From NCBI GenBank assembly GCA_017938885.1, contig JAGBAS010000028.1, positions 909 through 64,908 of the forward strand: DNA of 64,000 nt, read 5' to 3'. Origin of the DNA: Clostridia bacterium (GTDB lineage: Bacteria; Bacillota; Clostridia; Oscillospirales; CAG-272). This document shows, one piece after another, positions 4,634 through 58,786 of the stretch. Both the position numbers and the translations under genes were made by a program. The notes under the pieces are model-generated. The model saw nothing but the letters and a program-made list of their open reading frames with translations, searched no databases and had not been told where the DNA came from. How positions within the stretch are numbered: position 1 is the first letter of the stretch; each line of letters opens with the position of its first letter.

Positions 4634-5650
4634 TCACCTCACCATGCCAAGCAGCCCCTTCATCACGGGCCATGCGTCATCGGCATAGAAGCGATGACCG
4701 CCTTCACCCACCACCAGGGCACAATGTCCCGAGGCATCCGAAGCGGCATACAGCTCTTCGATGATACCATAGGTCTTGTTGACGCCGCCGAGGGGGAAGA
4801 TCCCGTCCTCACGGCCGCATACGACGACCAGTTTTTTCGGAGCGATCATGACCGCCAGATCCCCCATATCGAAGGAACGGGCGATACCGGGTATATAGTT
4901 ACAGACGCAATGGTGCAGGCCCACGATGGAGTCGCGGTAGGTACAGACCGCACAGGAGGGCATGAAACCGTCAAAGCGGTGCTCCAGGCAGGCGGTGTAA
5001 TAGGTGGCGGTACCGCCTCCCGAATTGCCCATGAGAACTGAGCCCTTCATGGTGATCCACTCACCGAAATGAGCCTCCATGGCATCCACTACCCGCATGA
5101 CGTCCCAGACCCGCTCCCCAATGAGGGTGCGCCCCAGGAGCATGGCCGTCATGGCGGGGCGTTCACAGGCAGGCCCGTGCTCCGTACCGCCGCAAAGACC
5201 AAAGCCCCGCTGCTCAATGGCCAGGGCTGCGAAGCCTTCCTGCACGGCGCGCACACAAAAATCCCGATCTCCTCCCGCAATAGTGGCCTCGTCTCCCTCG
5301 TATTTGGGCGTTCCCAAGGATATATGGGAGCCTTTGGAGTGCCCTTGAAGGCAGACACAGAGAGGAAGCTTCCCTTCTGCCTCCTTAGGGAGGAGGAGAT
5401 CGCCTCGGGTATAGTATCCTTCCTCGGTCTGAAGGGTAAACTGAATATGCCGGCATCCGCAGAGCTCGCCCTCGGCGGTGATCTCGAACAATGGCTCACA
5501 GGGCATAAAGGTATGAAGCCCCAGAAGCTCCCGCAGCTTGGCGATACAGGTCTTTCGATGCTCCTCAATGGGTGTCGAGCCGTCCCAGCGGAGCGCAGGC
5601 CGAGCGTCTGCGGACAGTTGGATATGATGCAGCAGCGGTTGATGGTTCAT
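4634..5650 (-). CDS. Alpha/beta-hydrolase, putative carbohydrate esterase
   Basis: The ORF contains a nucleophile elbow, GNSGGG (G-x-S-x-G). I placed the start at the second ATG because it has an RBS (atGGAGGAaactATG). The gene lies in a sugar-active operon. Confidence 0.75.
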   Translation of the reverse strand: MNHQPLLHHIQLSADARPALRWDGSTPIEEHRKTCIAKLRELLGLHTFMPCEPLFEITAEGELCGCRHIQFTLQTEEGYYTRGDLLLPKEAEGKLPLCVCLQGHSKGSHISLGTPKYEGDEATIAGGDRDFCVRAVQEGFAALAIEQRGFGLCGGTEHGPACERPAMTAMLLGRTLIGERVWDVMRVVDAMEAHFGEWITMKGSVLMGNSGGGTATYYTACLEHRFDGFMPSCAVCTYRDSIVGLHHCVCNYIPGIARSFDMGDLAVMIAPKKLVVVCGREDGIFPLGGVNKTYGIIEELYAASDASGHCALVVGEGGHRFYADDAWPVMKGLLGMVR

Positions 5651-5686
5651 AGTTTCCTCCATTTTTATTATTTCATGTTGCCTGTT

Positions 5687-6262
5687 TCAAGGTATCCGAT
5701 CAGACGGGAGGGTATCGTTTTGATATAAATAACAGTCCTTATCGTGTGCATATATCACGCCGATCGCTTGCAGATAGGAATAGATGGTAACCGAACCGAC
5801 GAACGTCATGCCTCTGCTTTTCAGATCTTTTGAAATCGCATCAGACAAGCCGTTGGTTGTCCGATCTGTCTCGTATACGGTTACATCCCGCGTAAAGGTT
5901 CTCAAATAATCGTGAAAAGAACCGAACTCATCGACAATTGTCTTGAAAACCCTGCTGTTTCGAATACTGGCCATGATTTTTTGCTGATTGCGGATGATAT
6001 GCGGATTTCCAAGCAGATCACGCACCTTGTTTTCCTCGTATGAAATGACCTTGTCGATCCGAAAACCATCATATGCTTCCCGGAAGTATTCCCTTTTATT
6101 CAGCACGCATTCCCAGGACAGTCCGGCTTGAAAGCATTCCAGGATCAGCATTTCGTACAAATACGCTTCATCGAAATTCGGTTTGCCCCACTCTTCGTCG
6201 TGATAGGCCACGTATCGGGGGTTTTTCAAATTGCACCATTTGCATCGCTTCTTGCCATCCAT
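5687..6262 (-). CDS. tag: DNA-3-methyladenine glycosylase I
   Basis: KRCKWCNLKNPRYVAYHDEEWGKPNFDEAYLYEMLILECFQAGLSWECVLNKRE matches the Tag signature (Cys/His zinc site, YHD-EWG). The start at MDGKK is chosen by length comparison with E. coli Tag. The gene is visibly AT-richer than its neighbours. Confidence 0.85.
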   Translation of the reverse strand: MDGKKRCKWCNLKNPRYVAYHDEEWGKPNFDEAYLYEMLILECFQAGLSWECVLNKREYFREAYDGFRIDKVISYEENKVRDLLGNPHIIRNQQKIMASIRNSRVFKTIVDEFGSFHDYLRTFTRDVTVYETDRTTNGLSDAISKDLKSRGMTFVGSVTIYSYLQAIGVIYAHDKDCYLYQNDTLPSDRIP

Positions 6263-8876: not shown

Positions 8877-11042
8877 TTACTCCGCAGGCTTGATGAGCAT
8901 GATGATGGCGTAGGGTTTTTCGGGCACCGTCACGGGAATGCCGCTCTCCATGAGGGTCTTTCCGTTGGCGGTGACGTCCACCAGGCCGTCGAAGTCGGTG
9001 ATACGATACGACTTTTCGGGGTCAAGTCCCTTGAGCTTGACCGTGGTGGACAGGCTCTTGGTATCCTGGTGGCAGAACACCGAGGCGTAGCCCGAGGACG
9101 TGGCGGGATCGTAGAATTCCCAGGCATTCCAGCGGTCGCGGTCGGCTGTCCATTCCACGAGGGGGTAGTAGTCGGCGTAGAAGTAATCGCGGATCTGCTC
9201 GAATTCGGCATAGCCCTGCTTATTGAGCGTCCAGTCTGCGTTCTTATCCAGAACGGGGCCGAAGTTCATGAGAGACAGGGGGGCGTAGTTCATACGCACC
9301 TTGTACATATTGTCGGTATCATAGATCTCATTCTTGAAGTAGGGGAACCAGGCAAAGAGGCTCTGGGTCTTACGGCCCTTCATGTCGTAGTCCTCGTGGT
9401 TCCCGTCGAACCAGTCGGTATAATGGAGGGGAACGCCCCGCTTCATGGTCTCCAGGTCGTTGCGGCCTCCGCCCGAGGCGCAGGAATCCATGTAGATGCC
9501 GGGATATCGCTCGATCAGCTTATCCCACAGGGATAGGTATCCTTGGACGTAGAGATTCTCGGTCATACCCTTGCGGTCGGGGTACTTCCAATCCATGGCG
9601 GCCCAGGAGGAGGCCGGATCGCAGTTGAAGTCTGAGCGGAAGCCCGTAGCGCCTGCATCGTCGATGACCTTACAGATCTTATGGAAGACCCACTCCACGC
9701 ACTCGGGATCGGTGAGATTCATGATATATCCCTCCAGCCAGGAGCCCTGCATGGCCTTGGGCAGGAACCATTCCTCCTTGAAGCCCTCTTGTCCGGCCAG
9801 GAATGCATCCTTGTCCAAGCGGATACTCTCGGGCTCAAACCAGATCATCATGCGCATATCGTGATCCTTACAGAACTGGCCGATATTCGCCATGCGGTCA
9901 GGGAAGCGGTTGGTATCCATATCCATGGAGCCTGTCTGAGGCCAGGAAACCGATTCGCCGTTGGCACCGAAGTACCAGCCGGCATCCAGCCACAAAAACT
10001 CGGGCTCCACACCTGCGTCGTAGTAGGAGTTGAGGATGGTCAGAAGGCGGTTCGTGGTATTGCCGGTACAGCCCTGGCTGACGCCCGTATAGATGGGGTA
10101 CAGCTCGCCGTCGATCTTACGCAAAACGTCGTTGATGAAATAATGCCGCCAGGCGTTGGTCTGCTCATCCGGAGTCATCTCCTCGTAGTCCACGAAGCCC
10201 ATCAGGGGGGTTCGGATGGTCTCACCGGGCTCCAGATAGGTATTCAGAACGTTCTGGCCCGCCTCCAGCGTGGTGATCTTTCGGGACTTGGAGTAATTGA
10301 AGCGCGCTGCCCAGTTTCCCGGCCAGCCAATGGCGATGAAGGTACCGCCGTTCCCGTAGGAAAGGTTATAGTAAGGGAACACGCCATGGGAGGGGCGGCC
10401 TGTGGTACAGACGTCGCTGTATCGGGATCGTTGACTCAGGTCGTGGACATAGGGGTCGTAATTCTTGCCCTGCGCATCTCCCTTGATACCGCTGATGACG
10501 GGGTCTGCGCCCTCGAATTGCAGATTGAACCAGAGCCGGGTGAACTTACCCGTATTGGTTTCTCCATCGTTTGTAATGTAGACCACGTACTCGTATGCGG
10601 TCTCTGCGGGGTATACGGTGGCCTCCAGGCAAAACAGCGCGGGGATCTCGGGATGGCGGAGGTTCATCGTGGTCTTGATGCCGCGCTCGATTTCCTCGTG
10701 GGTTTCAGATTCCAGGGTGAAGCCTGCAAAGCCCGCGTATTCCTTGTCGTCGTATTCAAAGGAAATGGGAAAATGGTCCAGATCCGACAGTGCGGCGTCG
10801 TAGCGGGGAACCGAGAAGGTCGGATCGGGCAGGAAGGGCTCGGTTTCGGCCTCGGCGGTCTCTTCCTCCGAGGGGACTTCGGTCAGGGTTTCGTCAGGAG
10901 CCTCGGTATCCGTGTCGGCGGGGGCATTGGTATCCGTGTCGGCGGTAGGCTGATCTCCCACGCAGGCGGTGAAGCCCGCCCCGAAAAGACAGAGGAGCAG
11001 AAAGGACGTAAGCGCAGTAAACAGCAGTTTATTCGGTTTCAT
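8877..11042 (-). CDS. Surface lipoprotein, GH36-like (clan-D alpha-galactosidase-like) glycoside hydrolase, paralogue 1
   Basis: Lipobox LLLCLFGAGFTAC followed by an acidic T/D/E/P linker. Catalytic-region motifs are LWLDAGWY, FRSDFNCD and DSCASGGGRND (a C-x-SGGGR-type GH36 signature). RBS aaaggagatcttcATG. Confidence 0.75.
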   Translation of the reverse strand: MKPNKLLFTALTSFLLLCLFGAGFTACVGDQPTADTDTNAPADTDTEAPDETLTEVPSEEETAEAETEPFLPDPTFSVPRYDAALSDLDHFPISFEYDDKEYAGFAGFTLESETHEEIERGIKTTMNLRHPEIPALFCLEATVYPAETAYEYVVYITNDGETNTGKFTRLWFNLQFEGADPVISGIKGDAQGKNYDPYVHDLSQRSRYSDVCTTGRPSHGVFPYYNLSYGNGGTFIAIGWPGNWAARFNYSKSRKITTLEAGQNVLNTYLEPGETIRTPLMGFVDYEEMTPDEQTNAWRHYFINDVLRKIDGELYPIYTGVSQGCTGNTTNRLLTILNSYYDAGVEPEFLWLDAGWYFGANGESVSWPQTGSMDMDTNRFPDRMANIGQFCKDHDMRMMIWFEPESIRLDKDAFLAGQEGFKEEWFLPKAMQGSWLEGYIMNLTDPECVEWVFHKICKVIDDAGATGFRSDFNCDPASSWAAMDWKYPDRKGMTENLYVQGYLSLWDKLIERYPGIYMDSCASGGGRNDLETMKRGVPLHYTDWFDGNHEDYDMKGRKTQSLFAWFPYFKNEIYDTDNMYKVRMNYAPLSLMNFGPVLDKNADWTLNKQGYAEFEQIRDYFYADYYPLVEWTADRDRWNAWEFYDPATSSGYASVFCHQDTKSLSTTVKLKGLDPEKSYRITDFDGLVDVTANGKTLMESGIPVTVPEKPYAIIMLIKPAE

Positions 11043-11071
11043 GAAGATCTCCTTTCGGGTGAAATCGGAAA

Positions 11072-13213
11072 TTACTTGGCTTCCCGGATGAGGAGGATCA
11101 CGGCGTAAGGCTGCTCGGGCACCGTAACTGTGATGCCCTGCTCCATGAGCTGAGCACCGTCGGCGGTGATCTCCACCAGACCGTCAAAATCCTTGATATG
11201 ATACTGCTTTTCGGGGTCAAGTCCCTTCAGGCACACCGTATTTGTCTTGGAGTTCGCCGCCTGCTGGCAGGCGATGAAGGCAAATCCCTCTCCGCTTTCG
11301 GGGACGTAGAACATACGGGCATCCCAGCGGTTGGCGTTGTTACTCCACTCGGTGAGGGCGTAGAAGTCACCGTAGAAATAGTCGCGGATGAGGTCGTACT
11401 CGGCGTAGGCCTGCCGCATGAGAGCCCAGTCGTTGTCCTTGTTGAGGGCACTGGGGAGCTTGAGGAGGCAGAAGGGGGCGTAGTTCATGCGAAGCTTATA
11501 AAGGCTGATCTGGTAGGATTCGTTCTTGAAGTAGGGGAACCAGGCAAAGAGAGCCTGGGTCATCTTGCCCTTCATGTCGTAATCCTCGTTGTTGCCGTCG
11601 AACCAGTCGGTGTAGTGGAGGGGGACGCCGCGCTTCATGGATTCCAGGTCGTTGCGGCCGCCGCCCGAGGCGCAGGAGTCGATGAAAATGCCGTACTTCT
11701 CGATGATGGCATCCCACAGAGCCAGGTAGCCCTGGACGTACTGATTCTCGGTCATGCCCTTCCGTCCCGACGTCTTACGGTCGTTTTCCTCCCAGGCAGG
11801 AGCGGGATCGTTGTTGAAGTCCTGGCGATAGCCGGTGGCTCCCGTGGTGTCTATAACCTTACAGATCTTGTTGAATATCCACTCACGGCACTCGGGGTTG
11901 CCCAGATCCATCAGAAGCCCCTCCAGGAACCCGCCGGGCTTGCCCAGTAGCCATTCCTCCTTGAAGTCGGGCTGACCGGCCAGGAAGGCGGCCTTATCCA
12001 GACGCATATTCTCGGGCTCAAACCAGAGCAGATACATGGCGTTGGTCTTTTTGGCGTAATCACCGATGTCCGCCATACCGTCGGGGAAGCGGTTATAGTC
12101 GATATCCAGCGATCCCGTAGACGTCCAGGGCACCGATTCACCGTTTGCGCCCGTATACCAGCCTGCGTCCATCCAGATCACGTCGGGGGTGACGCCGTTT
12201 GCGCGGTAGGCTTGGAGCATGAGCAGCTCCTTCTTGGTGGTCATGCCCGCCGACATATTGCCGATCCCTCGGTAGGTGGGCGTCAGCTCGCCGTCGATCT
12301 TGCGCATGACGTCGTGGATGTAGTAATGCCGCCAGGCGTTGGTCTGCTCGTCGGGTGTCAGTCCCTCATACTCCACAAAGCCCATAAGGGGGGTGCGGAG
12401 GGTCTCGCCGGGCGCTATGTAGGTCGCGACGTTGCCCTGCCCCGTGCGGAGGGTCGTGATCTTTTCACTCTTTTTATAGGTAAACTGGGCGTACCAGGTC
12501 CCCGGCCAACCGATGGCTATGAAGGTGCCGCCGTCTCCGTAGGAGAGATTGTAGTAGGGGAACGTGCCGTGGGAGGGTCGTCCCGAGGTGGAGGTATCGC
12601 TGTATCGGGAGCGGCCTGTCAGATCGTGCTCATAGGGGGTATAGTTCTGGCCGCCCGCATCGCCCTTGATACCGCTGATGAGGGGGTCATCGCCCACAAA
12701 GGAAATATCGAAGGAGAGGTCGGAGAAAATCTCGGTGTTCTCTTGCCCGTCGTTGACGATGTAGACCACGTACTCATAGGCGGACTCCTGCGGGTAGACG
12801 GTGGCCTCCAGGCGGAAGGCGGCGGGAATCTCGGGATGGCGGAAGATCCGGGTGGTCTTCACGCCGCGATCCACGTCCTCATAATGCTCAGACTCCAGAG
12901 CAAAGCCCGCAAAGCCGTTATACTCGGTCTTTCCGTACTTGAAGTACAGGGGGAAGGTATCGGGGTTGCTCATCAGCTCGTCGTACCTGGGCACGGCGCG
13001 CTCGGGATCGGGGGGGAAAGGCTCCGTCTCGGGCTCAGCGATGGTCGTTTCATCGGTCATGGTGGTGTCCTCCTCGGCAGGCTCTTGGGTTTCCGACGGG
13101 GAAGCCGTCGTCTCGGGAGTAGGATCGGGGGTGTCGGTACAGGCCGCCATCCCACCCATAAGGCACAGGAGCAAAAGCCCTGCGGTCAACAGAAACAGGT
13201 ATGATCTGCGCAT
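11072..13213 (-). CDS. Surface lipoprotein, GH36-like glycoside hydrolase, paralogue 2 (tandem duplicate)
   Basis: Lipobox LCLMGGMAAC plus an acidic linker. It is colinear with paralogue 1 over the full length, and by eye well over half the residues are identical. It carries the same IWMDAGWY, YRQDFNND and DSCASGGGRND motifs. Confidence 0.75.
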   Translation of the reverse strand: MRRSYLFLLTAGLLLLCLMGGMAACTDTPDPTPETTASPSETQEPAEEDTTMTDETTIAEPETEPFPPDPERAVPRYDELMSNPDTFPLYFKYGKTEYNGFAGFALESEHYEDVDRGVKTTRIFRHPEIPAAFRLEATVYPQESAYEYVVYIVNDGQENTEIFSDLSFDISFVGDDPLISGIKGDAGGQNYTPYEHDLTGRSRYSDTSTSGRPSHGTFPYYNLSYGDGGTFIAIGWPGTWYAQFTYKKSEKITTLRTGQGNVATYIAPGETLRTPLMGFVEYEGLTPDEQTNAWRHYYIHDVMRKIDGELTPTYRGIGNMSAGMTTKKELLMLQAYRANGVTPDVIWMDAGWYTGANGESVPWTSTGSLDIDYNRFPDGMADIGDYAKKTNAMYLLWFEPENMRLDKAAFLAGQPDFKEEWLLGKPGGFLEGLLMDLGNPECREWIFNKICKVIDTTGATGYRQDFNNDPAPAWEENDRKTSGRKGMTENQYVQGYLALWDAIIEKYGIFIDSCASGGGRNDLESMKRGVPLHYTDWFDGNNEDYDMKGKMTQALFAWFPYFKNESYQISLYKLRMNYAPFCLLKLPSALNKDNDWALMRQAYAEYDLIRDYFYGDFYALTEWSNNANRWDARMFYVPESGEGFAFIACQQAANSKTNTVCLKGLDPEKQYHIKDFDGLVEITADGAQLMEQGITVTVPEQPYAVILLIREAK

Positions 13214-13215
13214 GG

Positions 13216-14625
13216 TTAGTCCTCCTTCTTCTTACTCAGCATGGGGATCGCCACCAAAGCCGCCGCCGCGCAGCCGGGCAAAAGCACCGCGCCGCAGCCC
13301 TTCTTGACGGCTTCGGTTTCGGTGGAGGGCTCGGAGACGGCGGTATTCTCGGGCTCAGCAGGAGCCCGGGTCCCCTCCTCGGTGACGGGATCGGTGACCG
13401 GTTCGGTAGAGGGTTCGGTTTCGGGTTCGGTTTCGGGCTCGGTTTCGGGTTCGGTAGAGGGCTCGGTAGAGGGCTCGGTTTCGGGCGGGGTGATGATCTC
13501 ATCAAAGGACAGATCCGAGAAGAGCATATCCTCGGTGATGCTTCCGCTCTTGGAGATCACCGCGCCGCCGTAGGTTCCCCACGCGCCGCTGATACCGGGT
13601 GCGCCCGCCACGGCAAGGCGGAGGATCTTGACCCCCGTGATATCGCACTCCATGGGCTTCATGTCCTCGCCAAACGTCATGGTGCCGCTCTCCCAGAGCT
13701 TGACACCGTCGCCGAATACGGCGAATTTGATCTTGGCCATGGAAATATCGTGGGAGGTCAGGGTCTCGCAGACGCCGTAGTAGGCGGCCAGCTTGGTAAA
13801 GCCCAGGCCCTCGACGTTGACATCCACGTAGGCGTCGTAGCTCCCCGACACGGCGTGGAAGCCAACTCCCTTACGGAAGAACTTACCGTCGTTTGAGATG
13901 ATGATCTCGTTGGCGGTGTTGCAGTCGCGGCCCACCACGTTTCCCGTGTAGGTCGCGTTATCCAGCCAGTAGAGATCACTGACGTAGGCATAGTCGCCGC
14001 TGACCAGCTCGGCGGGCTGGAGCTTATCGGTTTTATCGGGATTAAACACGGGCGTGACCTCCACTTTATCATCTGCCATGGGTTCCTCGTTCATCAGTCG
14101 GGCATTGCCCCACACGCCCGCGTCGCAGGCGTGGCCGTTCTCGTTCTTCTGCACCAGGCGCAGGGTCTTGACCCCCTCCACCGAGCAGGACAGGAAGTAG
14201 GGCTCGTCTCCCCATACCCGCATGGGCGTGGAGGCGAGAAGCTTGCCATCCCCGTAAACGTGGAAGGAGATGCTTCCCCACTCGATGAAATAGCCTGCCT
14301 CCTTGAGAACCCCCACCGAGGCGGCGAAATATTTCAGGCCAAGCGAGGAGATATCGAATTCACAGTAAGCATCCTTATCGGGGAGGCAATGGAAGCCCAG
14401 ACCCTTGTCAAAGCGTTGAGAGCCGATGGTGATGGGCTCGCCCGAATGGGCGGTGTTCCAGCCAAAGCCGTCCAGACTGTCGCGCCCGAGGAACAGATCC
14501 TCCCGATCGCCGAGGTAGACGGTGTCCTCTGCGGCGGACGCAGGAAAGGCGGCTGACAGGGACATCCCCGACATCATCAGAAGGGCAAGTGCCAGAGTGA
14601 GGATGCGAAAATGCTTGATTTTCAT
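13216..14625 (-). CDS. Non-catalytic surface glycan-binding protein: signal peptide, two NPCBM-like modules, TEP-repeat stalk, C-terminal KKGC membrane anchor
   Basis: Sec signal peptide ...SLSAAFPASA/AED. There are two repeats of the NPCBM-type pattern (YLGD...GWNTAHSGEPITIGSQRFDKGLGFH and YVSDLYWLDNATYTGNVVGRDCNTANEIIISNDGKFFRKGVGFHA). The C-terminus reads TEPSTEPSTEPETEPETEPETEPSTEP...KKGCGAVLLPGCAAAALVAIPMLSKKKED. Confidence 0.75.
   Translation of the reverse strand: MKIKHFRILTLALALLMMSGMSLSAAFPASAAEDTVYLGDREDLFLGRDSLDGFGWNTAHSGEPITIGSQRFDKGLGFHCLPDKDAYCEFDISSLGLKYFAASVGVLKEAGYFIEWGSISFHVYGDGKLLASTPMRVWGDEPYFLSCSVEGVKTLRLVQKNENGHACDAGVWGNARLMNEEPMADDKVEVTPVFNPDKTDKLQPAELVSGDYAYVSDLYWLDNATYTGNVVGRDCNTANEIIISNDGKFFRKGVGFHAVSGSYDAYVDVNVEGLGFTKLAAYYGVCETLTSHDISMAKIKFAVFGDGVKLWESGTMTFGEDMKPMECDITGVKILRLAVAGAPGISGAWGTYGGAVISKSGSITEDMLFSDLSFDEIITPPETEPSTEPSTEPETEPETEPETEPSTEPVTDPVTEEGTRAPAEPENTAVSEPSTETEAVKKGCGAVLLPGCAAAALVAIPMLSKKKED
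13398..13489 (-). repeat. In-frame 12-nt tandem repeat encoding the (T-E-P-S/E)n stalk
   Basis: Units of ACCGAGCCCTCT / ACCGAACCCGAA are repeated about 7 times on the coding strand. Confidence 0.8.
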
Positions 14626-26000: not shown

Positions 26001-26116
26001 AAGATACGAGATACGCGCCGAGCAAGCTCGGCAGATACAAGATACAAGATAAAAAAGAGAGGCAGTGCGAAAGTCCAACGTATATCTTGTATCTTTGTAT
26101 CTTGTATCTTTGTATC
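26001..26116. repeat. Heptad-armed palindromic element D, (GATACAA)n / (TTGTATC)n
   Basis: Sequence: aaGATACGAGATACG-cgccgagcaagctcggca-GATACAAGATACAAGATAaaa...loop...atatcTTGTATCTTTGTATCTTGTATCTTTGTATC. It abuts the polC stop codon (26117..26119). Confidence 0.85.
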
Positions 26117-29100
26117 CTAAAATTGCATGGTCATCTGATCCGTCTCATTCACCCCATCCAGCACGTGATTCTGCCGCAGGATCTCCACCACGGCGGAGGT
26201 AAGCTTGGCTCTCGTTTTCATATCCTCTACCGAGAAGAAGGGTTCCTCGTCGCGGGCGGCCACGATGTTGGCGGCGGCGTTCTCGCCCAGACCGGCGAGG
26301 GAGGCGAAGGGAAGGCGGATCTTGTCGTTCTCGGGGACGTACTCGTCGGCGGTAGACTTTTCCAGGTCCACGGGGAGGAAGCCGATGCCGCGGGCGTAGG
26401 CCTCGTTGACCAGCTGGAGGACGGGGAGGCTCTGGGTCTCCTTGGGGGAGGCCTCGTTCTTCTGAGAGCGGGTCTCGATATCCTTGATGTAGTCGGCCAC
26501 CGCCTTCTTTCCCTTCATGACCAGAGCGCCGTCAAAGCCCAGGGGCTGGACCGTGAACATGGCACAGTAAAAGGCCAGGGGGATATGCACCTTATACCAG
26601 CCCAAACGGATAGCTGACATATCGTAAGCGGCGGCATGGGCCTTGGGGAACATGTACTTGATCTTCTTACAGGAGGCGATGTACCAGTCGGGCACGCCCA
26701 CCTCCCGCATTTCGGCCTCGTACTCGGGGGTCAGTCCCTTGCCCTTACGCACCATTTCCATGATCTTGAAGGCGTGGGATTTCTCCACTCCGTAGCGGAT
26801 GAGAGCCAGCATGATATCGTCTCTCGTTCCGATAACCTGGGAAATGTTGCAGGTTCCGTTGGCGATGAGCTCCTGGGCATTGCCCGTCCAGACGTCGGTG
26901 CCGTGGGATAGACCCGAAATTTGCAGAAGGTCGGAGAAGGTTTGGGGCTTACATTCCTCCAGCATCTTGATGACGAAGCGGGTACCCAGCTCGGGCAGAC
27001 CCAACGTGCCGAGAGTACAGCCGATCTCCTCGGGGGATGCCCCCAGGGGCTTGGTTCCCAGGAACAGCTCATAGATGGAGCGGTCGTTCATAGGCACATC
27101 CAGCACCGAGGTATCGGAATACTTTTCCAGGTACTTATATTTGGTCGGCATATCGTGGCCCAGCTCGTCCAGCTTGAGGAGGGTATCGTGGAGGTACTCG
27201 AAGGTAAAGTGGGTGGTGACGATATCCGAATTGGGATCGTCGGCGGGGTGCTGAACGGGGCAGAAATCGTAGATCTCCAGATGCTTGGGGACCACCACAA
27301 TGCCGCCGGGGTGCTGACCCGTGGTGCGCTTGACACCCACGCAGTGGGCAGTGAGGCGGTTGGCCTCGGCGCGGTTGACGCTGATCTTCTTGTCCTCCAG
27401 GTACTTCATGACGAAACCGTAGGCAGTCTTGTCTGCCAGAGCACCGATGGTCCCCGCACGGAAAACGTTCTCGGCACCGAACAGCTCCTCGGTGTACTTG
27501 TGGACCTTGCCCTGGACCTCGCCCGAGAAGTTCAAATCAATATCGGGGGATTTGTCTCCGTAGAAGCCGAGGAAGGTCTCGAAGGGGATATCGTGGCCGT
27601 CGTAGTTGAGCTTACGTCCGCAGTTGGGACAGATCTTGTCGGGGAGGTCGAAGCCCGAGAAAACCCCGATCTTTTTGGCGGTCTCAAAGTCGGAATACTT
27701 ACAATCGGGGCACCAGTAGTGGGGGGGCAAGGGATTCACCTCGGATATGCCCGCCAGATTGGCGACGACGGATGAGCCCACAGAGCCTCGGGAGCCCACG
27801 AGGTAGCCTTGAGACTCGGAATAGGCCACCAGCTTTTGGGCGATCATGTACAGCACCGCGAAGCCGTTTTTAATAATGGAAGGAAGCTCCCTCTCCAATC
27901 TGTCCTTGACGATCTCGGGGAGGGGGTCACCATAGCGAGACTTGGCGGTCTCGTAGCAGATGCGCTCCAGGTCCTCGTTAGCGCCCTCCATCTCGGGGTT
28001 GAAGGTACCCTTGGGGAAGGGGCGGATGCCGTCCTCGATCATGTCGGCAATCATGTTGGTGTTGGTAACCACCACCTCGAAGGCCTTTTCCTCGCCGAGG
28101 TAGGCGAATTCCTCCAGCATTTCCTCGGTGGTGCGGAGGTAGAGTCCGCTGTCCTTGTCGAAGTCCTTGAACTTCATGCCCGCCTGGAGAATCTTGCGGT
28201 AGACGTCGTCCTCGGGGTTGAGGAAGTGGGCGTCGCAGGTGGCCACCACGGGCTTGCCGTACTGCTCGCCCAGGGCGACCACGCGGCGGTTGAGGTTGCG
28301 GAGCTCCTCCTCGTCCTTGAACTTGCCTTCATCGATCAGAAAGCGGTTATTGCAAATCGGCTGGATCTCCAGGTAGTCGTAGAACTTGACGATCTCGGCG
28401 ATATCCGCATCGGGGCGGTTGTCGATGATAGCCCGCATGAGCTCGCCCGCCTCGCAGGCAGAGCCCACCAGCAATCCTTCCCTGTGCTTTTCCAGCTCGG
28501 TCTTGGGAATGCGGGGGTTGCGGCGGTAGTATTTAAGGTAGCTGTAGGAGACCAGCTTGTAGAGGTTCTTCAGTCCCTCCTTGTTCTTGACCAAAAGCAC
28601 CTGGTGGTAGGGGCGAAGCTTGAGGGGGTCGGTCTTTTCGGCCATCTCGCTTACCAGCTTATCGTAGGTGCGGACGTCCTGCTCGTCCAGATCGCGGAGC
28701 ATACAGAAATAGATTTCGGCCAGCATAGCGGCGTCGTCGCAGGCACGGTGGTGGTTGAAGTCGCCGAGCTCGTAGTGACCTGCCACGGTATCCAGCTTGT
28801 GATTTTTCAGGTCGGGGAGCAGAAAGCGAGCCAGGGCCAAGGTATCCAGGTAGGGGTTCTTGAACTCGTACCCGCAGCGCACCGAGGCGGCGCGGATGAA
28901 GCCGGTATCGAAGTCGGCGTTGTGGGCAATGAGGAGGACTTCCCCACCCGTGTCGGATCGTTTGCCCACGAAGTCGAAGAAGGCTTTCAGGGCCTCGGCC
29001 TCGGAGGGAGCATCCTTGACCATATCGTCGGTGATGCCCGTGAGCTTGACAATCTCCTCGGGGATGGGCATCTCGGGGTTGACGAAGGTGTTGAAGTTAT

Positions 29101-38868: not shown

Positions 38869-38890
38869 GGTATGTACCTGCCTTTCTTGA

Positions 38891-38925
38891 ATGCAAAATG
38901 CGAAATGCAAAATGCAAAATGAATT
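38891..38925. repeat. Tandem heptad array (ATGCAAA)n
   Basis: ATGCAAA-ATGCGAA-ATGCAAA-ATGCAAA-ATGAATT lies immediately upstream (coding-strand sense: CATTTTG units) of the RBS of the 37231..38868 gene. The same TTGCAAAATG motif occurs in the outer arms of element C and near 55561..55578. Confidence 0.8.
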
Positions 38926-38939
38926 TTGTGGTTTCCTTG

Positions 38940-39365
38940 TTATTCCGTAGGGACGGCCTCGCAGATCTTGGTATGGGGATAGTAGCGGATTCGGTAGGTC
39001 TTTCCAATTTCCACGTTTGCGGCGTTCAAAATCACATATTCATCCTTTTCGGGTATGTAGAATTTCGGCCGTGAATAGTAAGGGTCGGGCTCAAACTCGT
39101 CGCGGTATACACGGGTAAAACATACGACCACGGCAGTTTCCTCCAAATACTCTCCGGACGTTGCCATTTCGTAATCCCGTATGGTTGGTATAAACATATA
39201 GGTGCTGAGAATAGCAAGAAATGACAAGGCTACACAAAAGCCTATGAAATACGGCTTATTTAACTTCTTTTTTACGAACAAGCAAGTACATAGCACGGCA
39301 AAAACGCCAGCGGAAGCCAAGCCCGTTACCGAAAGCGCAAATAGTAACCGGTATTCAGTCAGCAT
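38940..39365 (-). CDS. Hypothetical 2-TM membrane protein (AT-rich gene)
   Basis: Two hydrophobic helices are followed by a ~75-aa soluble tail. RBS aggagaatgtgcatATG. The composition is much AT-richer than the flanks. Confidence 0.5.
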   Translation of the reverse strand: MLTEYRLLFALSVTGLASAGVFAVLCTCLFVKKKLNKPYFIGFCVALSFLAILSTYMFIPTIRDYEMATSGEYLEETAVVVCFTRVYRDEFEPDPYYSRPKFYIPEKDEYVILNAANVEIGKTYRIRYYPHTKICEAVPTE

Positions 39366-44770: not shown

Positions 44771-45790
44771 ATGTCGTGGTATCATATTCCCGGGAATCAG
44801 CAGGACGTGGCGGTATTTACCCGCATCACCATTGCCCGCAATCTTTCGGGGCATCCCTTTCCCTCCCGCTTGGACGCGGCAGGCGCGCGGGCCGTTTTAG
44901 AAGCGGTGGGCGGCGTATTTGAACGGAACGGCTTTACCCGCACCGACCCGGGCACGTTGTCCCGCACGGCCGCAGAGGCTCTGGCAGAGAAGCGGTACGT
45001 CAGCCCCCGCTTTATCGCCGAAAGTCTTCCCCACGCGCTGTTTCTCAACGAGCCCTGCAACCTGGCCGTTACGGTCTGCGAGGACGACCACATCCGCATC
45101 CGCTGTATCCTGTCGGGACTGGCCTTGAAGGATGCTTACGAAGGGGCAGGGCGGGTGGAGACTCTGCTGGACAGCGCGCTTGAGCTGGCCTTTGACGAAA
45201 AGCTGGGGTATCTCACGGCCAACCCGACTGAATTGGGCACGGCTCTGCGAGGAAGCGTTACGGTCTGCCTTCCCATGCTGGGCGGAGCGGGACGGGTAGA
45301 AGCCCTGTCCCGCAGTCTGGAGCAAACGGGGCTTTGCCTGCGGGGGAGCACCGTCGATCCCGTGGCCGCAGGATGGCTCTACCGCATCTATAACCGCACC
45401 ACCCTGGGGCAGACTGAGGAGGAGGTGCTGAATGCCCTGGAGGGAACAGTCCAGCACTTGATCGAAGCGGAACGGCAGGCCCGTGAGGGGATCTCGGGGA
45501 CGGAGCGGGAAAAGCTGACAGACCGCATCCTCCGCGCCGAGGGGATCCTCCGCCACGCCCACATGATCCCCATTTCCGAGCTCCCTTCCCTGCTGGGGCT
45601 GATGCGGCTCGGCGCGGCTATGGGGCTGACTCCTGCCGTCAAGGTCGAGGCTTTGACCGCCCTGCTCGTCGAGGCCATGCCCGCGACCCTGACCTTGGGA
45701 GCCGAGCCCCCGCCAGTGACCGATGCCCAGCGGGAGCTTTTGCGGGCAAAGGTCGTGCGGGACAGGCTCTTCGGAGCCGAATACGGATAA
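44771..45790 (+). CDS. mcsB: Protein arginine kinase McsB (ATP:guanido phosphotransferase family)
   Basis: ITIARNLSGHPFP...CEDDHIRIRC...LGYLTANPTELGTALRGSV...YRIYNRTTLGQTEEE. RBS taaggaggacggatcATG. Confidence 0.9.
   Translation: MSWYHIPGNQQDVAVFTRITIARNLSGHPFPSRLDAAGARAVLEAVGGVFERNGFTRTDPGTLSRTAAEALAEKRYVSPRFIAESLPHALFLNEPCNLAVTVCEDDHIRIRCILSGLALKDAYEGAGRVETLLDSALELAFDEKLGYLTANPTELGTALRGSVTVCLPMLGGAGRVEALSRSLEQTGLCLRGSTVDPVAAGWLYRIYNRTTLGQTEEEVLNALEGTVQHLIEAERQAREGISGTEREKLTDRILRAEGILRHAHMIPISELPSLLGLMRLGAAMGLTPAVKVEALTALLVEAMPATLTLGAEPPPVTDAQRELLRAKVVRDRLFGAEYG
45779..45790 (+). repeat. Left copy of the 12-bp direct repeat GAATACGGATAA (putative target-site duplication)
   Basis: An identical 12-mer lies at 45988..45999. 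The left copy encodes the last three codons and the stop of mcsB (E-Y-G-stop). Confidence 0.8.
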
Positions 45791-45987
45791 GAGCCAATTG
45801 CAAAATGCTCAAATTTGGGTTTATCGAACAGATACAAGATACGGAGATACAAGATACGGAGATACAAGATACAAGATATAGAACGGCTGTTGCCTCAAGG
45901 TTATTTCATATCTTGTATCTTTGTATCTTGTATCTTGTATCTTGTATCTCACCGAAAAACCCCAATTTTACATTTTGCAATCGCCTA
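45791..45987. mobile_element. Composite nested palindromic element C (MITE-like): outer TTGCAAAATG/TTGGGTTTATCG arms enclosing (GATACAA)n / (TTGTATC)n arms
   Basis: The left end gagccaattgcaaaatgctcaaatttgggtttatcgaac matches the right-end reverse complement, taggcgattgcaaaatgtaaaattggggtttttcggtg. The inner arms are 45831..45881 (GATACAA/GATACGGA units) and 45908..45948 (TTGTATC units). A perfect 12-bp direct repeat flanks the element. Confidence 0.8.
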
Positions 45988-45999
45988 GAATACGGATAA
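45988..45999 (+). repeat. Right copy of the 12-bp direct repeat GAATACGGATAA
   Basis: Identical to 45779..45790. It sits just upstream of the clpC RBS (aaataaaggaggaatctcATG). Confidence 0.8.
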
Positions 46000-46015
46000 A
46001 TAAAGGAGGAATCTC

Positions 46016-48538
46016 ATGACCAACCGTTTCACAGGCCGCGCCCAGAGCGCGCTCAACGGAGCCTTGCGGGAGGCGCAGGCCCTGGGGCATACCTACGTCG
46101 GCTCGGAGCATTTATTGCTGGGTCTACTCACCGAAAGCGAATGCATCGCCGCCAAGCTCATGCGAGCCAGGGGAGCCGATCCCGATAAGTACCGAGCCGC
46201 CATGATCGAGCTATCGGGAGAGGGGGCTCAGAGTCGGGTATCCCCTTCGGATATGACGCCGCGTGTTCGTCGGATCATCCAGGATTCCGCCAACGAGGCG
46301 GGGCGGTCGGGGCAGTCCTACGTGGGGACCGAGCATCTGCTCCTGGCCCTGCTGGATCAACCCGACTGCGTAGCGGTGCGCCTTCTGGAATCGGTCTCCG
46401 TCTCTCCGGACGAGCTGCGGCGGGACGTGGTGGGCTTTCTGGCCGCCTCTCCCTCGGCCTCCGGGGGCATGGAGCCTTCGGTCAAGGCACGGAGCGAGGA
46501 GCGCAATCCCCGTTCCCGGGAGGAACTGCGTGAAGGACATCGGGAGCGGGGGAGCACGGAAAATGGCCATACCCGTATTCCGGGAGCACCCACGCTATCC
46601 AAATACGGCCGCGATCTCACCTCCCGCGCGCGGGAGGGCAAGCTGGATCCCATCATCGGGCGGGAAGCCGAGACCGAGCGCGTCATCCGCATCCTGTCCC
46701 GTCGTCAGAAGAATAATCCCTGTCTGATCGGTGAGCCCGGAGTGGGAAAAACCGCCGTGATCGAGGGGCTGTGTCAGCGCATTGCAGACGGGAGCGTCCC
46801 CGAGACTCTGAAGGGGAAAAGCATCATTACGCTGGATATTCCCGCCATGATCGCCGGGGCGAAATACCGCGGGGAATTTGAGGATCGGCTCAAGGGTATT
46901 ATGGCCGAGGTGCGCGGGGAGCCTGACCTGATCCTGTTCATTGATGAGCTTCACACCATTGTGGGAGCGGGCGCGGCTGAGGGTGCAGTGGATGCCGCCA
47001 ACATCCTCAAGCCTGCCCTGGCGCGGGGGGAGATCCGCATCATCGGAGCGACCACGGCGGAGGAATACCGGCTCCACGTAGAAAAGGATTCTGCCCTGGA
47101 ACGGCGGTTCCAGGCGGTTATAGTCGGCGAGCCGAGCGAGGAGGAAGCCCTGCGCATCCTAACGGGTCTGCGGCCCCGCTACGAGGCTCACCACAAATTG
47201 AAGATCACCGACGAGGCGTTGCGGGCGGCGGTTGAGCTGTCGGTCAAATACATTCCCGACCGCTTTCTCCCCGACAAGGCCATCGACCTCATGGATGAGG
47301 CGGCGGCGGCTCTCCGCATCTCCTGCATGACCGCGCCCCCCGATCTCAAGCGCATGGAGGCAGAGCTCTCCACCCTGTCCCGCGAGAAGGAGGAGGCCAT
47401 CAAGGCGCAGGAATTCGAGCGGGCGGCCGGGCTTCGGGATCGGGAACGACTTTTGCAGGAGTCCTACGACTCCGCCCGCAACGCCTGGTCAGAGGATCCG
47501 AGCCGCCGCCAATCAGAGGAGACCGTCACCCCCGCCGCCATCGCCGATGTAGTCACCGAATGGACGGGCATCCCCGTGGCGCGTCTGCTGGAAAGCGAGG
47601 GAGAACGGCTTCTGAGTCTGGAAAAAACGCTTCAAGAGCGGGTGATCGGCCAGAGCAAGGCGGTCTCTGCCGTGGCGGGCGCTATCCGCAGAGGTCGGCT
47701 GGGGCTGAGCGACCCCCGCCGTCCCATTGGCTCCTTCATCTTTCTGGGGCAGACGGGCGTAGGAAAGACCGAGCTGGCGCGGGCTCTGGCGGCGGCTTTG
47801 TTCGGGAGTGAAAAAGCCTTGATCCGCTTTGATATGTCGGAATATATGGAGAAGCACAGTGTTTCCCGCCTCATCGGTTCTCCCCCCGGGTATATCGGCC
47901 ACGAAGAGGGGGGACAGCTTACGGAGCGGGTGCGGCGAAAGCCCTACGCAGTGGTGCTCTTTGACGAGCTGGAGAAGGCGCATCCCGATATTTACAATAT
48001 TCTGCTTCAGGTCATGGACGACGGTTCCCTCACCGACTCAGCCGGACGGCGGGTGGATTTCCGTCACACCGTCCTCATCATGACCTCCAACCTGGGAGCT
48101 GAAGAAAGCCGCCAACCCTCGGTGGGCTTTACGGGCGGAGACCGAAAGGAACGCGGACACGAGCGCATGACCGAAGCACTCAAGCGAGCCTTTCGCCCCG
48201 AATTTCTGGGGCGGATCGACGAGGTCGTGGTCTTCGATACCCTGGGGATAGAAGAAGTCAGCCAAATCGCCGTCCAACATCTGGAGGCTCTCCGCACCCG
48301 GGTCGGTTCGCTGGGGATCCGACTGGAATGGACCAAGAATTGCGTATCCCTGCTGGCCGAGGAGGGGCTTGACCCCAGATACGGTGCCCGTCCCCTGCGC
48401 CGCGCGGCTGTACGGCTGATCGAGGAGCCCTTGGCGGAGGCGATCCTGCGGGGAGGTATCCTCGAAGGGGACAGGGTTACGGTGGAGGCAGAGGATGGGA
48501 AATGCGTATTTCGTATAGAGGGAAATCAGCAGAGGTGA
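46016..48538 (+). CDS. clpC: ATP-dependent Clp protease ATP-binding subunit ClpC
   Basis: Two Clp-N repeats, Walker [10 protein letters not shown] and GQTGVGKTE, a UVR-like motif [17 protein letters not shown], and the ClpB_D2-small tail. Confidence 0.95.
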
Positions 48539-57323: not shown

Positions 57324-58655
57324 ATGAAAGAATTTTTCGGCCCTGACGTTCTGCTCCGCTCAGATGCGGCCAAGGCCCTCTATGCGACGGTCAAGGACCT
57401 GCCCATCATCGACTACCATTGCCACCTCAACGAGACGGAGATCGCGGCTGACCGCAGCTTCTCGGACCTGGGCGAGCTGTGGCTGGGAGGCGACCACTAC
57501 AAGTGGCGCGCCATGCGGATGTGCGGTATCGACGAGAAGTACGTAACCGGCGATGCCGACTTCTCCGAGAAGTACATGAGGTACGCCTCCATCTTCCCCC
57601 GACTGGCGGGCAATCCTCTGTACTACTGGACTCAGATGGAGCTGGGCTTGATCTTCGATATCCACGAGCCGCTTGGCCCCGACACCGCCGAGGACATCCG
57701 TGAGAAGGCCAACGCCAAGCTGGCAAATATCCGCGTCAGCGATCTTCTGAAGCAGTTCAAGGTGGAGTACATCGCCACCACCGACGATCCCGTGTCGGAG
57801 CTGGCGGCTCACGGTGTGTACGGCGACACCAAGGTCTCCCCCACCTTCCGCCCCGACCGCATGATCGGTCTGGACGAGACCGCGCTCTCCGAGCTGGCCG
57901 CCGTTTCGGGCATCGCCACCGATACGCTGGAGGGCTTGAAGGCCGCTCTGACCGCAAGACTGGACTACTTCGTGGCTCACGGCTGCCGCATCAGCGACCA
58001 CGGCATGGACTGGCTTCCCGCCGCCGATTGCGGTGAGACCGCCGCCGCCGAGCTGTACGACAAGCGGGGCAAGCTGGACACCGAGGACAAGTGGACTCTG
58101 ACCTCCCATCTTCTGCACTTCGTGGCCGCTCTGTACGCCGAGCGGGGCATGGTGATGCAGCTCCACTTCGCCACCTACCGAAACGTCAACACCGCCATGT
58201 TCGGGCGGGTCGGCCGAGATGCGGGCTTTGACATCATGCGCGGAGGCGTGGACACCGACAAGCTGGTAGTCTTCCTCGACACCCTGAACAAGGAAGGCAA
58301 GCTTCCCAAGACGGTTCTGTATACGCTGAATCCCGCCTGTGTGCCTGCCCTTTGCACCCTGTCGGGGGCGTTCCCGAACGTGAGAGTCGGCGCGGCTTGG
58401 TGGTTCAACGACAGCGTGGAGGGCATCCGCCGTCAGCTCAAGCTCACCGCCGAGTACGCCGCTCTGGGCACGAGTCTCGGTATGCTGACCGACTCCCGCT
58501 CCTTCGCCAGCTACGCGCGGTTCGATTTCTTCCGCCGGATCCTCTCCGATGTGGTCGGCGAGTGGGTGGAGAACGGCGAGTATGATATGAAACACGCGGA
58601 GAAGCTGATGTATGACGTTTGCTATGGGAACGTCAAGGAGTTCTTAGGAATCTAA
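57324..58655 (+). CDS. uxaC: Glucuronate (uronate) isomerase
   Basis: LPIIDYHCHL...GDHYKWRAMRMCGI...NPLYYWTQMEL... RBS gaaaggagatcatacacATG. Confidence 0.92.
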   Translation: MKEFFGPDVLLRSDAAKALYATVKDLPIIDYHCHLNETEIAADRSFSDLGELWLGGDHYKWRAMRMCGIDEKYVTGDADFSEKYMRYASIFPRLAGNPLYYWTQMELGLIFDIHEPLGPDTAEDIREKANAKLANIRVSDLLKQFKVEYIATTDDPVSELAAHGVYGDTKVSPTFRPDRMIGLDETALSELAAVSGIATDTLEGLKAALTARLDYFVAHGCRISDHGMDWLPAADCGETAAAELYDKRGKLDTEDKWTLTSHLLHFVAALYAERGMVMQLHFATYRNVNTAMFGRVGRDAGFDIMRGGVDTDKLVVFLDTLNKEGKLPKTVLYTLNPACVPALCTLSGAFPNVRVGAAWWFNDSVEGIRRQLKLTAEYAALGTSLGMLTDSRSFASYARFDFFRRILSDVVGEWVENGEYDMKHAEKLMYDVCYGNVKEFLGI

Positions 58656-58753
58656 AGATACAAGATACAAGATACGAGATACAAGATATGGCTCAACCGA
58701 GGGTTATCTTGTATCTTGTATCTGCCGAGCATTGCTCGGCGTGTATCTTGTAT
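58655..58753. repeat. Heptad-armed palindromic element E, (GATACAA)n / (TTGTATC)n
   Basis: Sequence: GATACAAGATACAAGATACGAGATACAAGATATGG-ctcaaccgagg-gTTATCTTGTATCTTGTATC-tgccgagcattgctcggcg-TGTATCTTGTATC. It begins at the last base of the uxaC stop codon. Confidence 0.85.
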
Positions 58754-58786
58754 CTCCAAACCAACTGAAAAAGTGAGGAGAACACT

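Follow-up and report, generated by a model that had tools for sequence, protein, structure and literature searches.

Heptad-armed palindromes in operon spacers of uncultured gut Clostridia and their association with PF05635 genes

The DNA analysed here, a 64,000-nucleotide stretch of a Clostridia bacterium genome referred to below as the window, contains three pairs of co-directional genes whose spacers are each filled by a palindrome with arms made of tandem GATAC(A/G)(A/G) heptads. The first element, E1 (26003-26116, minus strand), occupies the spacer that extends from the stop codon of polC (26117-26119) to the ribosome-binding site (RBS) and start (25981) of a DUF1643 gene. The heptad core of the second, E2 (45831-45948, plus strand), lies between mcsB and clpC, and the third, E3 (58657-58754, plus strand), lies between the stop codon of uxaC (58653-58655) and the RBS and start (58787) of uxuA. 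The identities of the host genes, encoding PolC, McsA, McsB, ClpC, UxaC, UxuA and the DUF1643 protein that follows PolC, were confirmed. All three copies are thus found between protein-coding genes and none in helix 25 or 45 of 23S rRNA, the window being devoid of rRNA. The original prediction of three such palindromes proved sound, as TRF detected period-7 arrays in both arms of E1, E2 and E3 (2.7-6.7 copies per arm), and all 14 copies of the motif GATACRRGATAC in the window belong to these elements, compared with 0.02 occurrences expected from shuffled sequences. The loops, predicted at 10-27 nt, measure 16-31 nt. An array of another heptad (AATGCAA, 4.6 copies; 38890-38921, minus strand), solo and without a pairing partner, is situated in the operon spacer of two minus-strand genes and probably belongs to the same general class. 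GC skew in the window tracks the gene strand and is uninformative on the orientation of replication.

E1 and E3 have a common layout, termed type A. Its 5' part reads A-(GATACAA/GATACAAA/GATACGA)x4-GATAT and is followed by a loop of variable length (16-31 nt), while the 3' part consists of TTATC-TTGTATC-TTGTATC, a GC mini-hairpin of the form GCCGAGC-N2-3-GCTCGGC, and G(C/T)GTATC-T(C/T)GTATC-T. Read in the minus (gene) direction, E1 comprises four heptads or octads, a 31-nt loop, two heptads, the mini-hairpin and two further heptads; E3 comprises five units, a 16-nt loop, two units, the mini-hairpin and two units. A 27-nt junction stretch is 100% identical between the two. The mini-hairpin (16-17 nt), which in both elements separates heptads 2 and 3 in one of the arms, is the sole strongly asymmetric feature of type A and can therefore serve as an orientation marker; it reads GCCGAGC-AA-GCTCGGC in E1 (26017-26032) and GCCGAGC-ATT-GCTCGGC in E3 (58724-58740), where it belongs to the 3' arm. 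The possibility that it constitutes an independent mini-element was considered and rejected, since both occurrences in the window and all 12 occurrences in 257 fetched loci are located inside heptad elements.

E2 represents a second layout, type B, which does not carry the GC mini-hairpin. Its core of seven units (GATACAA/GATACGGA), a 30-nt loop and six TTGTATC units is enclosed by two further layers of inverted repeats: the outer arms ctcaaatttgggtttatcgaaca (45808-45830, plus strand) and tcaccgaaaaaccccaatttt (45949-45969, plus strand), which are partners of each other, and the outermost repeats ccaattgcaaaatg (45794-45807, plus strand) and cattttgcaatcg (45971-45983, plus strand), likewise partners. 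The resulting composite of 197 nt is bordered on both sides by the 12-bp direct repeat GAATACGGATAA, the first copy (45779-45790, plus strand) spanning the final codons of mcsB with the TAA stop and the second (45988-45999, plus strand) lying directly 5' of the clpC RBS (46004-46009). This repeat is possibly a target-site duplication, in which case the mcsB-clpC spacer before insertion would have been 16 nt long.

The elements begin 0-4 nt past the upstream stop codon if the outer arms of E2 are included. In agreement with the original prediction, the first heptad directly adjoins the stop codon of polC in E1 and follows the uxaC TAA by 1 nt in E3, while the heptads of E2 start 40 nt past the mcsB TAA within a composite palindrome that itself starts 3-4 nt past it. 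At the other side, E1-E3 finish 8-30 nt upstream of the Shine-Dalgarno sequence that serves the following co-directional gene, which is left unpaired in the predicted folds. The anticipated hairpins of roughly 35-50 bp are borne out by folding predictions, which give near-continuous stems of that length with -45.1 kcal/mol for E1 (z -6.6), -67.8 kcal/mol for E2 (z -11.75) and -61.7 kcal/mol for E3 (z -10.6), and -96 kcal/mol (z -12.25) for E2 together with its outer arms; the complementary strands are predicted to fold about equally stably. This length of double-stranded RNA is well in excess of what RNase III requires. A transcribed stem of 35-50 bp would probably be cut by this enzyme and the polycistronic mRNA split, by analogy with known systems, so that an RNase III site at each long RNA hairpin is plausible. 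The polC, mcsB-clpC and uxaC-uxuA operons, which serve housekeeping or catabolic functions, would in this way carry inserts capable of forming long double-stranded RNA and likely to shape mRNA processing. An intrinsic (Rho-independent) terminator, which had been proposed among other functions, was rejected: no terminator-like site was found in the E2 region (45600-46200), and the sequences following E1 (ttaccacg) and E3 (tccaaacc) contain no U-tract.

Tandem short repeats are also typical of protein-binding arrays, and Streptomyces SARP regulators bind heptameric direct repeats, as the title of PMC5930380 states. The heptads might on these grounds be iteron-like binding sites in double-stranded DNA for a regulator or nucleoid protein. 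The location of the elements past stop codons instead of at promoters, the absence of a promoter consensus at the elements, the palindromic pairing of the arrays across long and variable loops and the functionally unrelated host operons make this hardly credible.

The heptad palindromes make up a true family of elements, dispersed among uncultured gut Clostridia. A scan for exact matches to the 18-mer GATACAAGATACAAGATA, with one genome per species, returned at least 115 loci, of which at least 33 are in at least 14 uncultured MAG species of Clostridia, Eubacteriales or Oscillospiraceae from animal and human guts, often with several loci per MAG. At least 27 palindromic copies occupy non-orthologous sites. 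The element DNA is 77-96% identical to that of the window and is the best-conserved DNA common to the window and the MAGs, the flanking genes hardly matching in blastn. The McsB of the window occurs in metagenome or MAG records only (NCBI "Clostridia bacterium", J6K29_), the next relatives being at most 70% identical. The type A layout, which includes GCCGAGCTTGCTCGGC, is near invariant among copies, and the outer arms and loop of type B are conserved as well, the left outer arm being kept in five loci (L030, L079, L132, L084 and L070). In most copies, a stop codon is followed by the element and then by an RBS, between co-directional housekeeping genes; the hosts in MAGs include hisS, dnaX, mreB, rpoB, purM, galE/galM, pmi and an ABC-F gene, among others. 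The genes flanking MAG copies are not orthologous to those in the window, and when the MAG loci were searched by tblastn with the proteins that flank the elements in the window, synteny was limited to a DUF1643 homologue in one locus (L089). This homologue has no polC upstream and provides no empty site for E1. An insertion located past the pmi gene is common to two species (L086 and L129), which indicates that some copies are old. Apparent additional conservation at E2 in another locus (L003) was set aside, as the mismatches are confined to the start of the locus, and a scan of viral contigs gave 18 scattered matches with no pattern.

This dispersal bears on the question of whether each array arose independently in situ through slippage of the polymerase and was not copied from site to site. 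Among long simple-sequence repeats in prokaryotes, heptamers are the most over-represented (as cited in PMC4679880 and PMC4692102), solo one-arm heptad arrays occur among the fetched loci as well as at position 38890 of the window, and unit number varies between copies, one of which (L123) has undergone an 11-mer expansion. Such an origin, which the original prediction had also argued against, is nevertheless largely refuted and very unlikely: non-repeat modules, namely the 16-nt GC mini-hairpin that is always placed between heptads 2 and 3, and the outer arms and loop of type B, recur at non-orthologous sites and in unrelated species, with at least 14 MAG species represented, the arrays of the palindromes are strictly paired, and they are associated with PF05635 genes, as described below.

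The original prediction had placed particular weight on polarity, all three copies presenting the GATACAA arm first when read in the direction of the upstream gene. This observation is uninformative, because an inverted repeat of the form GATACAA...TTGTATC reads identically on both strands. When the mini-hairpin was used as a marker in the 12 copies with directional flanking genes (E1, E3 and ten in MAG loci), it was found in the 3' arm relative to host transcription in four (E1, E3, L044b, L082) and in the 5' arm in eight (L044a, L065, L086, L095, L098, L104, L129, L140). Type B also occurs in both orientations, with E2 and L079 forward and L084 reverse. Strand preference was further assessed from G.U versus A.C content, since G.U wobbles are tolerated only in the folding strand, and no bias towards the transcribed strand was detected, the sense strand being the more stable in 12 elements and the antisense strand in 13 (Wilcoxon p = 0.54). 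The lack of any compensatory or G.U bias argues against selection on the structure of the host mRNA, and a constraint at the level of the DNA or of the element fits it equally well.

These results weigh against the elements being strand-specific cis-regulatory RNAs selected by the host, whether as 3'-UTR stabilisers, terminators or attenuators, or operon decouplers. Some features do speak for such a role, including the location within operons directly past stop codons, where the RBS stays unpaired, the great predicted stability of the hairpins and the retention by two species of the pmi insertion at orthologous positions. The elements run in either direction relative to transcription, though, with neither a sense-strand bias nor a U-tract or terminator consensus; no Rfam covariance model matches the elements, either at the gathering score or at E values of up to 5; and the host operons are functionally unrelated. 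Moreover, the mcsB-clpC spacer is empty and only 30 nt long in two relatives (L162 and L163) whose McsB proteins are 60-70% identical to that of the window. A host-designed regulatory function is distinctly unlikely, and the absence of both polarity and sense-strand bias argues against it. The placement just past stop codons is a habit of the whole family, as had been proposed for the three copies, yet the closeness to the stop codon is largely explained by the tiny size of the original spacers, as exemplified by the empty mcsB-clpC orthologue. The same spacer in other relatives of this level of McsB identity is instructive in a different respect. One locus (L161) contains a palindrome with arms of tandem AATGAAT/ATTCATT heptads and another (L160) a palindrome of GGGAGCG/CGCTCTCC 7-8-mers, so that, together with E2, the same architecture recurs with unrelated unit sequences.

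A multi-copy family that occurs in either orientation and at non-orthologous sites of many species, with arms of 77-96% identity, could also be a non-autonomous transposon resembling MITEs or REPINs, mobilised in trans either by a RAYT/IS200-IS605-type enzyme acting on single-stranded hairpins or by a DDE enzyme, with PF05635 as occasional cargo. The 12-bp direct repeat around the composite E2 would fit this explanation, as would the observation that the element's own canonical strand, defined by the mini-hairpin, was predicted to fold more stably than its complement in 9 of 12 copies, which is suggestive and not significant. Contigs break at the element, and short-read contigs terminate inside E2; heptad elements thus disrupt short-read assemblies right at gene ends. 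On the other hand, the transposase that the original prediction had suggested looking for, of RAYT/IS200-605-like or other type, was found neither among 40 flanking genes nor between the split arms of elements, and two ORFs between heptad sites in one locus (L071) have no Pfam match. Direct repeats like that of E2 are absent from the flanks of 14 type-A copies (E1, E3 and 12 others) and of four other type-B copies, and the GATACAA arms do not contain the conserved 5' GTAG motif that is the signature of REP-type elements, imperfect palindromes of about 20-40 nt. Unlike transposase-specific terminal inverted repeats, the tandem 7-mer arms differ in sequence between lineages while the architecture remains constant. 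Mobilisation of this kind is rather unlikely on balance.

The sole gene found between the arms of such elements is not a known transposase but a member of PF05635 (S23p, "four helix bundle protein"). This family has thousands of members, and we know of no function for it. In an Oscillospiraceae MAG (L125), GATACAA x4-GATAT and ATATC-(TTGTATC)x3 flank an ORF of 118 amino acids that belongs to PF05635 (Pfam, E 2.7e-30). The cassette is located between purH and purD, co-directional with both, and an ORF-less GATACAA palindrome is found on the same contig at a distance of 4 kb. At E <= 1e-10, 3877 homologues of the protein were found; those nearest to it, with 75-90% identity, come for the most part from very short contigs. 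All inspected close homologues are at the purH|purD site with GATAYRA arms (L144-L159 being among the relatives with an ORF), and the inner edges of these cassettes (GATAT and TTATC) are those of E1-E3. Several of them come from XIEF21-1 metagenomes, a project that is also the source of the window's genome. GATACAA-type arrays flank PF05635 genes in more distant bacteria as well, namely an Anaerolineales MAG (L041), a low-GC bacterium (L091), Dysgonomonas sp. 511 (L112) and a Bacteroidota MAG (L054), and a PF05635 gene from Nitrospirae (L042) has GATGCAN heptads on both sides. Decay intermediates are present between the arms, the gene being frameshifted in the Anaerolineales MAG and truncated to about 58 codons in the Bacteroidota MAG. 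In the window, no PF05635 homologue was detected and the loops of E1-E3 span only 16-31 nt. As ORF-less loops contain no recognisable remnant of such an intervening-sequence protein (IVP) gene, descent may have run either way, the ORF-less form being a deletion derivative or the hairpin having later gained an ORF. In principle, common heptad units could also have been homogenised by gene conversion instead of reflecting common descent.

The presence of heptad inverted arrays around PF05635 genes appears to be general. All eight of the inspected plasmid-borne four-helix-bundle genes are flanked by inverted tandem heptamers, with a unit that is specific to the lineage: TTAGGAA/TGAGGAG in Monoglobus, where the gene lies between hsdS and hsdR, CTCTCCG in Treponema, TTAGTGA (x12) in Bernardetia, AATTCGC (x4 on each side) in Nostoc, GATGAAG/TTCATAA in Chlorohelix, AATCCCC and AATCGTA in Planktothrix, and CTGGTCA (x13) in Euhalothece. 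In an unbiased sample of 80 PF05635 genes from metagenomes, analysed with a strict array detector for periods 5-10, tandem arrays were found in 46 flanks and every one had a period of 7. At least one flank carried an array at 36 of the 80 loci and both flanks did at 10, whereas any tandem repeat was seen in only 2 of 117 shifted controls. Likewise, the inverted-repeat score between upstream and downstream flanks was at least 20 at 51 of the 80 loci (median 21.75) and at none of the 117 controls (median 8). A prediction for Xanthomonas also held, in that GGGAATC-type heptads and the complementary array flank the XCC0516-type gene (PDB 2GSC), which is located between accB and accC. The dispersed heptamer without an ORF is therefore, in three lineages, identical to the unit that flanks the lineage's own PF05635 genes. 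PDB entries 2RLD and 2GSC, both members of the family, contain five chains each, and the Xanthomonas protein forms a pentameric toroid (PMC4990558). PF05635 ORFs are also present in rRNA insertions of candidate-phyla-radiation (CPR) bacteria.

On the basis of these data, E1, E2 and E3 are best explained as ORF-less (miniature) copies of a heptad-armed family whose GATACAA arms elsewhere flank PF05635 genes of the 23S intervening sequence (IVS) type, co-transcribed in operon spacers and probable substrates of RNase III, an explanation to which we give somewhat better than even chances. The copies fill the short gap from a stop codon to the following RBS in either orientation; they would be transcribed with the operon, and their arms would pair in the RNA to form a duplex of 35-50 bp that leaves the downstream RBS free. 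Cleavage of this duplex by RNase III, as in IVSs and as proposed for the NEMIS elements of Neisseria, may then separate the two cistrons. The elements would probably be tolerated selfish passengers rather than regulators designed by the host, and the number of heptads may drift via slippage. The picture of a heptad-armed hairpin cassette inside transcription units, with ORF-less copies populating operon spacers, is testable.

The IVSs of rRNA have for 30 years been described as selfish elements whose origin is unknown, and the data presented here tie that origin to two other puzzles, the unexplained excess of tandem heptanucleotide repeats in bacterial genomes and the function of PF05635. A broader proposal, which we regard as tentative and doubtful as it stands, is that heptad palindromes with or without a PF05635 gene are one phylum-spanning class of selfish cassettes in operons and rRNA, uniting 23S IVSs, the short tandemly repeated repetitive (STRR)-type repeats of cyanobacteria, the GGGAATC elements of Xanthomonas and the GATACAA elements, and accounting for much of the heptanucleotide excess. 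In its strongest form, the pentameric protein would recognise the heptad array of its own lineage, with about one subunit per unit, and help to maintain or spread the cassette, ORF-less copies riding along in the manner of MITEs. No literature linking heptamer arrays in mRNA spacers to PF05635 was found in a search of incomplete coverage, which is absence of evidence only, and searches by sequence string returned unrelated primers only.

Among known systems, the Correia/NEMIS, ERIC and REP/BIME/REPIN elements resemble E1-E3 in being small ORF-less palindromes that are co-transcribed with their neighbours and form long RNA stem-loops, and REP sits between the genes of operons as E1-E3 do. The RNA hairpins of NEMIS have been proposed as RNase III substrates (PMC2229807). 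None of these families has arms of tandem 7-mers, however. Correia elements have 24-bp terminal inverted repeats and duplicate a TA target site, and REPINs have GTAG together with a cognate RAYT transposase, an IS200/IS605-like Y1 enzyme often bordered by the repeats; none of this was found for the elements described here, the transposase search covering 40 flanking genes and the split arms. A different kind of likeness exists with the cyanobacterial STRR sequences, heptanucleotide repeats reportedly described by Mazel et al. in 1990, which are tandem head-to-tail 7-nt repeats in intergenic regions and operon spacers, as the period-7 arrays of E1-E3 are. Three heptanucleotides are mentioned for Calothrix PCC 7601 (PMC4692102), and Nostoc PCC 7120 has dispersed heptamers such as csR4 (ATTGCGAATTG) and an AATTGCG unit with 79 + 26 copies (PMC2408588). 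Units of the AATTCGC and CTGGTCA type flank four-helix-bundle genes on the plasmids of Nostoc and Euhalothece, respectively, yet the STRR sequences, which have other units and belong to another phylum, have been described as direct repeats or fingerprinting targets, without a function or cassette.

The GGGAATC heptamers of Xanthomonas come closer in architecture, being intergenic convergent inverted pairs that can form stem-loops, with 70-75 pairs per genome, positions conserved between species and variable repeat numbers (Rehm et al. 2015, PMC4692102). Like E1-E3, they are inverted tandem heptamers whose unit also flanks a PF05635 gene, in this case between accB and accC. They have been read as G-quadruplex formers, the link to PF05635 not being made (Rehm et al. 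2015, PMC4692102), whereas GATACAA cannot form a G-quadruplex and comes from a different phylum.

The closest described relative of E1-E3 is the 23S IVS of Coxiella burnetii, which has a decaying S23p (PF05635) ORF in its loop, a 28-bp terminal stem cut by RNase III at the first repeat, and three or four tandem GACAGAT heptamers in a number that varies between strains (PMC4990558). With the IVSs of Leptospira and Coxiella, E1-E3 have in common the terminal inverted repeats, predicted to form a long stem, and the tandem heptamers of variable number, and the sense-oriented PF05635 ORF in the loop and its decay are paralleled in the GATACAA-armed relatives rather than in E1-E3 themselves. Being an RNase III substrate is a feature of the IVS stem and would apply to E1-E3 by their stem length alone. 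E1-E3 differ from the IVSs in their location in mRNA operon spacers, their lack of an ORF, their unit sequence and their additional GC mini-hairpin or type-B outer arms. The statement that this class of elements had no formal description is accordingly correct in one part and not in the other: relatives have been described in the Coxiella IVS (PMC4990558), the Xanthomonas GGGAATC repeats (PMC4692102) and STRR, so that IVS-type, heptamer-paired stem-loops as such are already known, while E1-E3 are a new sequence family, distinguished by its site in mRNA spacers, its ORF-less form and its GC mini-hairpin.

In three lineages the spacer between mcsB and clpC carries palindromes whose 7-8-nt units are unrelated to one another: the heptad palindrome E2 (45831-45948) in the window, and those of the comparison loci L160 and L161. 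In a fourth lineage, that of L162, it is empty, at 30 nt. The spacer could be a hotspot, or the insertion in it could be ancient, with one repeat unit giving way to another over time. E2 also breaks assemblies: four independent short-read Logan contigs (L007-L010) all end at one identical base, 48 nt past the stop codon of mcsB, where the first heptads of the element lie.

Within the window, a further tandem heptad array with a unit unlike GATACAA, AATGCAA x4.6, lies at 38890-38921 between two minus-strand genes, the first of which has its stop codon at 38940 and the second its RBS/start at 38869. This array is solo, with no inverted partner. Other repeats in the window are two tandem paralogous minus-strand genes of ~715 aa (8877-13213), with a spacing of ~2183-2195 nt and a DNA identity of 71-87%, and a 12/24-nt tandem repeat, GGTTCGGTAGAGGGCTCGGTTTCG, at 13379-13486, which falls within a gene on the minus strand (13216-14625) and presumably is a coding repeat that keeps the reading frame.

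A Patescibacteria MAG holds an ORF-less, almost perfect palindrome of ~470 nt (L034:3232-3703), in the arms of which GATACAA x4 runs into a second heptad array, CCGACAT x5. At L123:6917-7078, the 11-mer AGCCTGAGCAG is tandemly expanded (~4 copies) where the GC mini-hairpin of type-A elements would sit. In a composite-like arrangement, L044:5123-6231 has a single xylose-isomerase-like TIM-barrel gene (5244-6140) between two type-A copies of opposite orientation. Directly upstream of a type-B element, which has extra outer arms, L079:253-2391 encodes a protein of 712 aa that contains an RNase III domain (PF00636, E 9e-16), an adjacency that is probably coincidental.

Heptad arms also accompany four-helix-bundle genes (PF05635, "23S rRNA intervening-sequence protein"). 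In Xanthomonas (L253-L256), the XCC0516-type gene is located between accB and accC with GGGAATC-type heptads on both sides (1125-1200 and 1531-1572), the downstream array reaching the accC start codon, where there is no obvious RBS. Heptad-armed genes of this family in Monoglobus, Chlorohelix and Planktothrix plasmids (L165, L170, L171) lie within restriction-modification or helicase-methylase operons, inserted between hsdS and hsdR or between helicase and N6-methylase.
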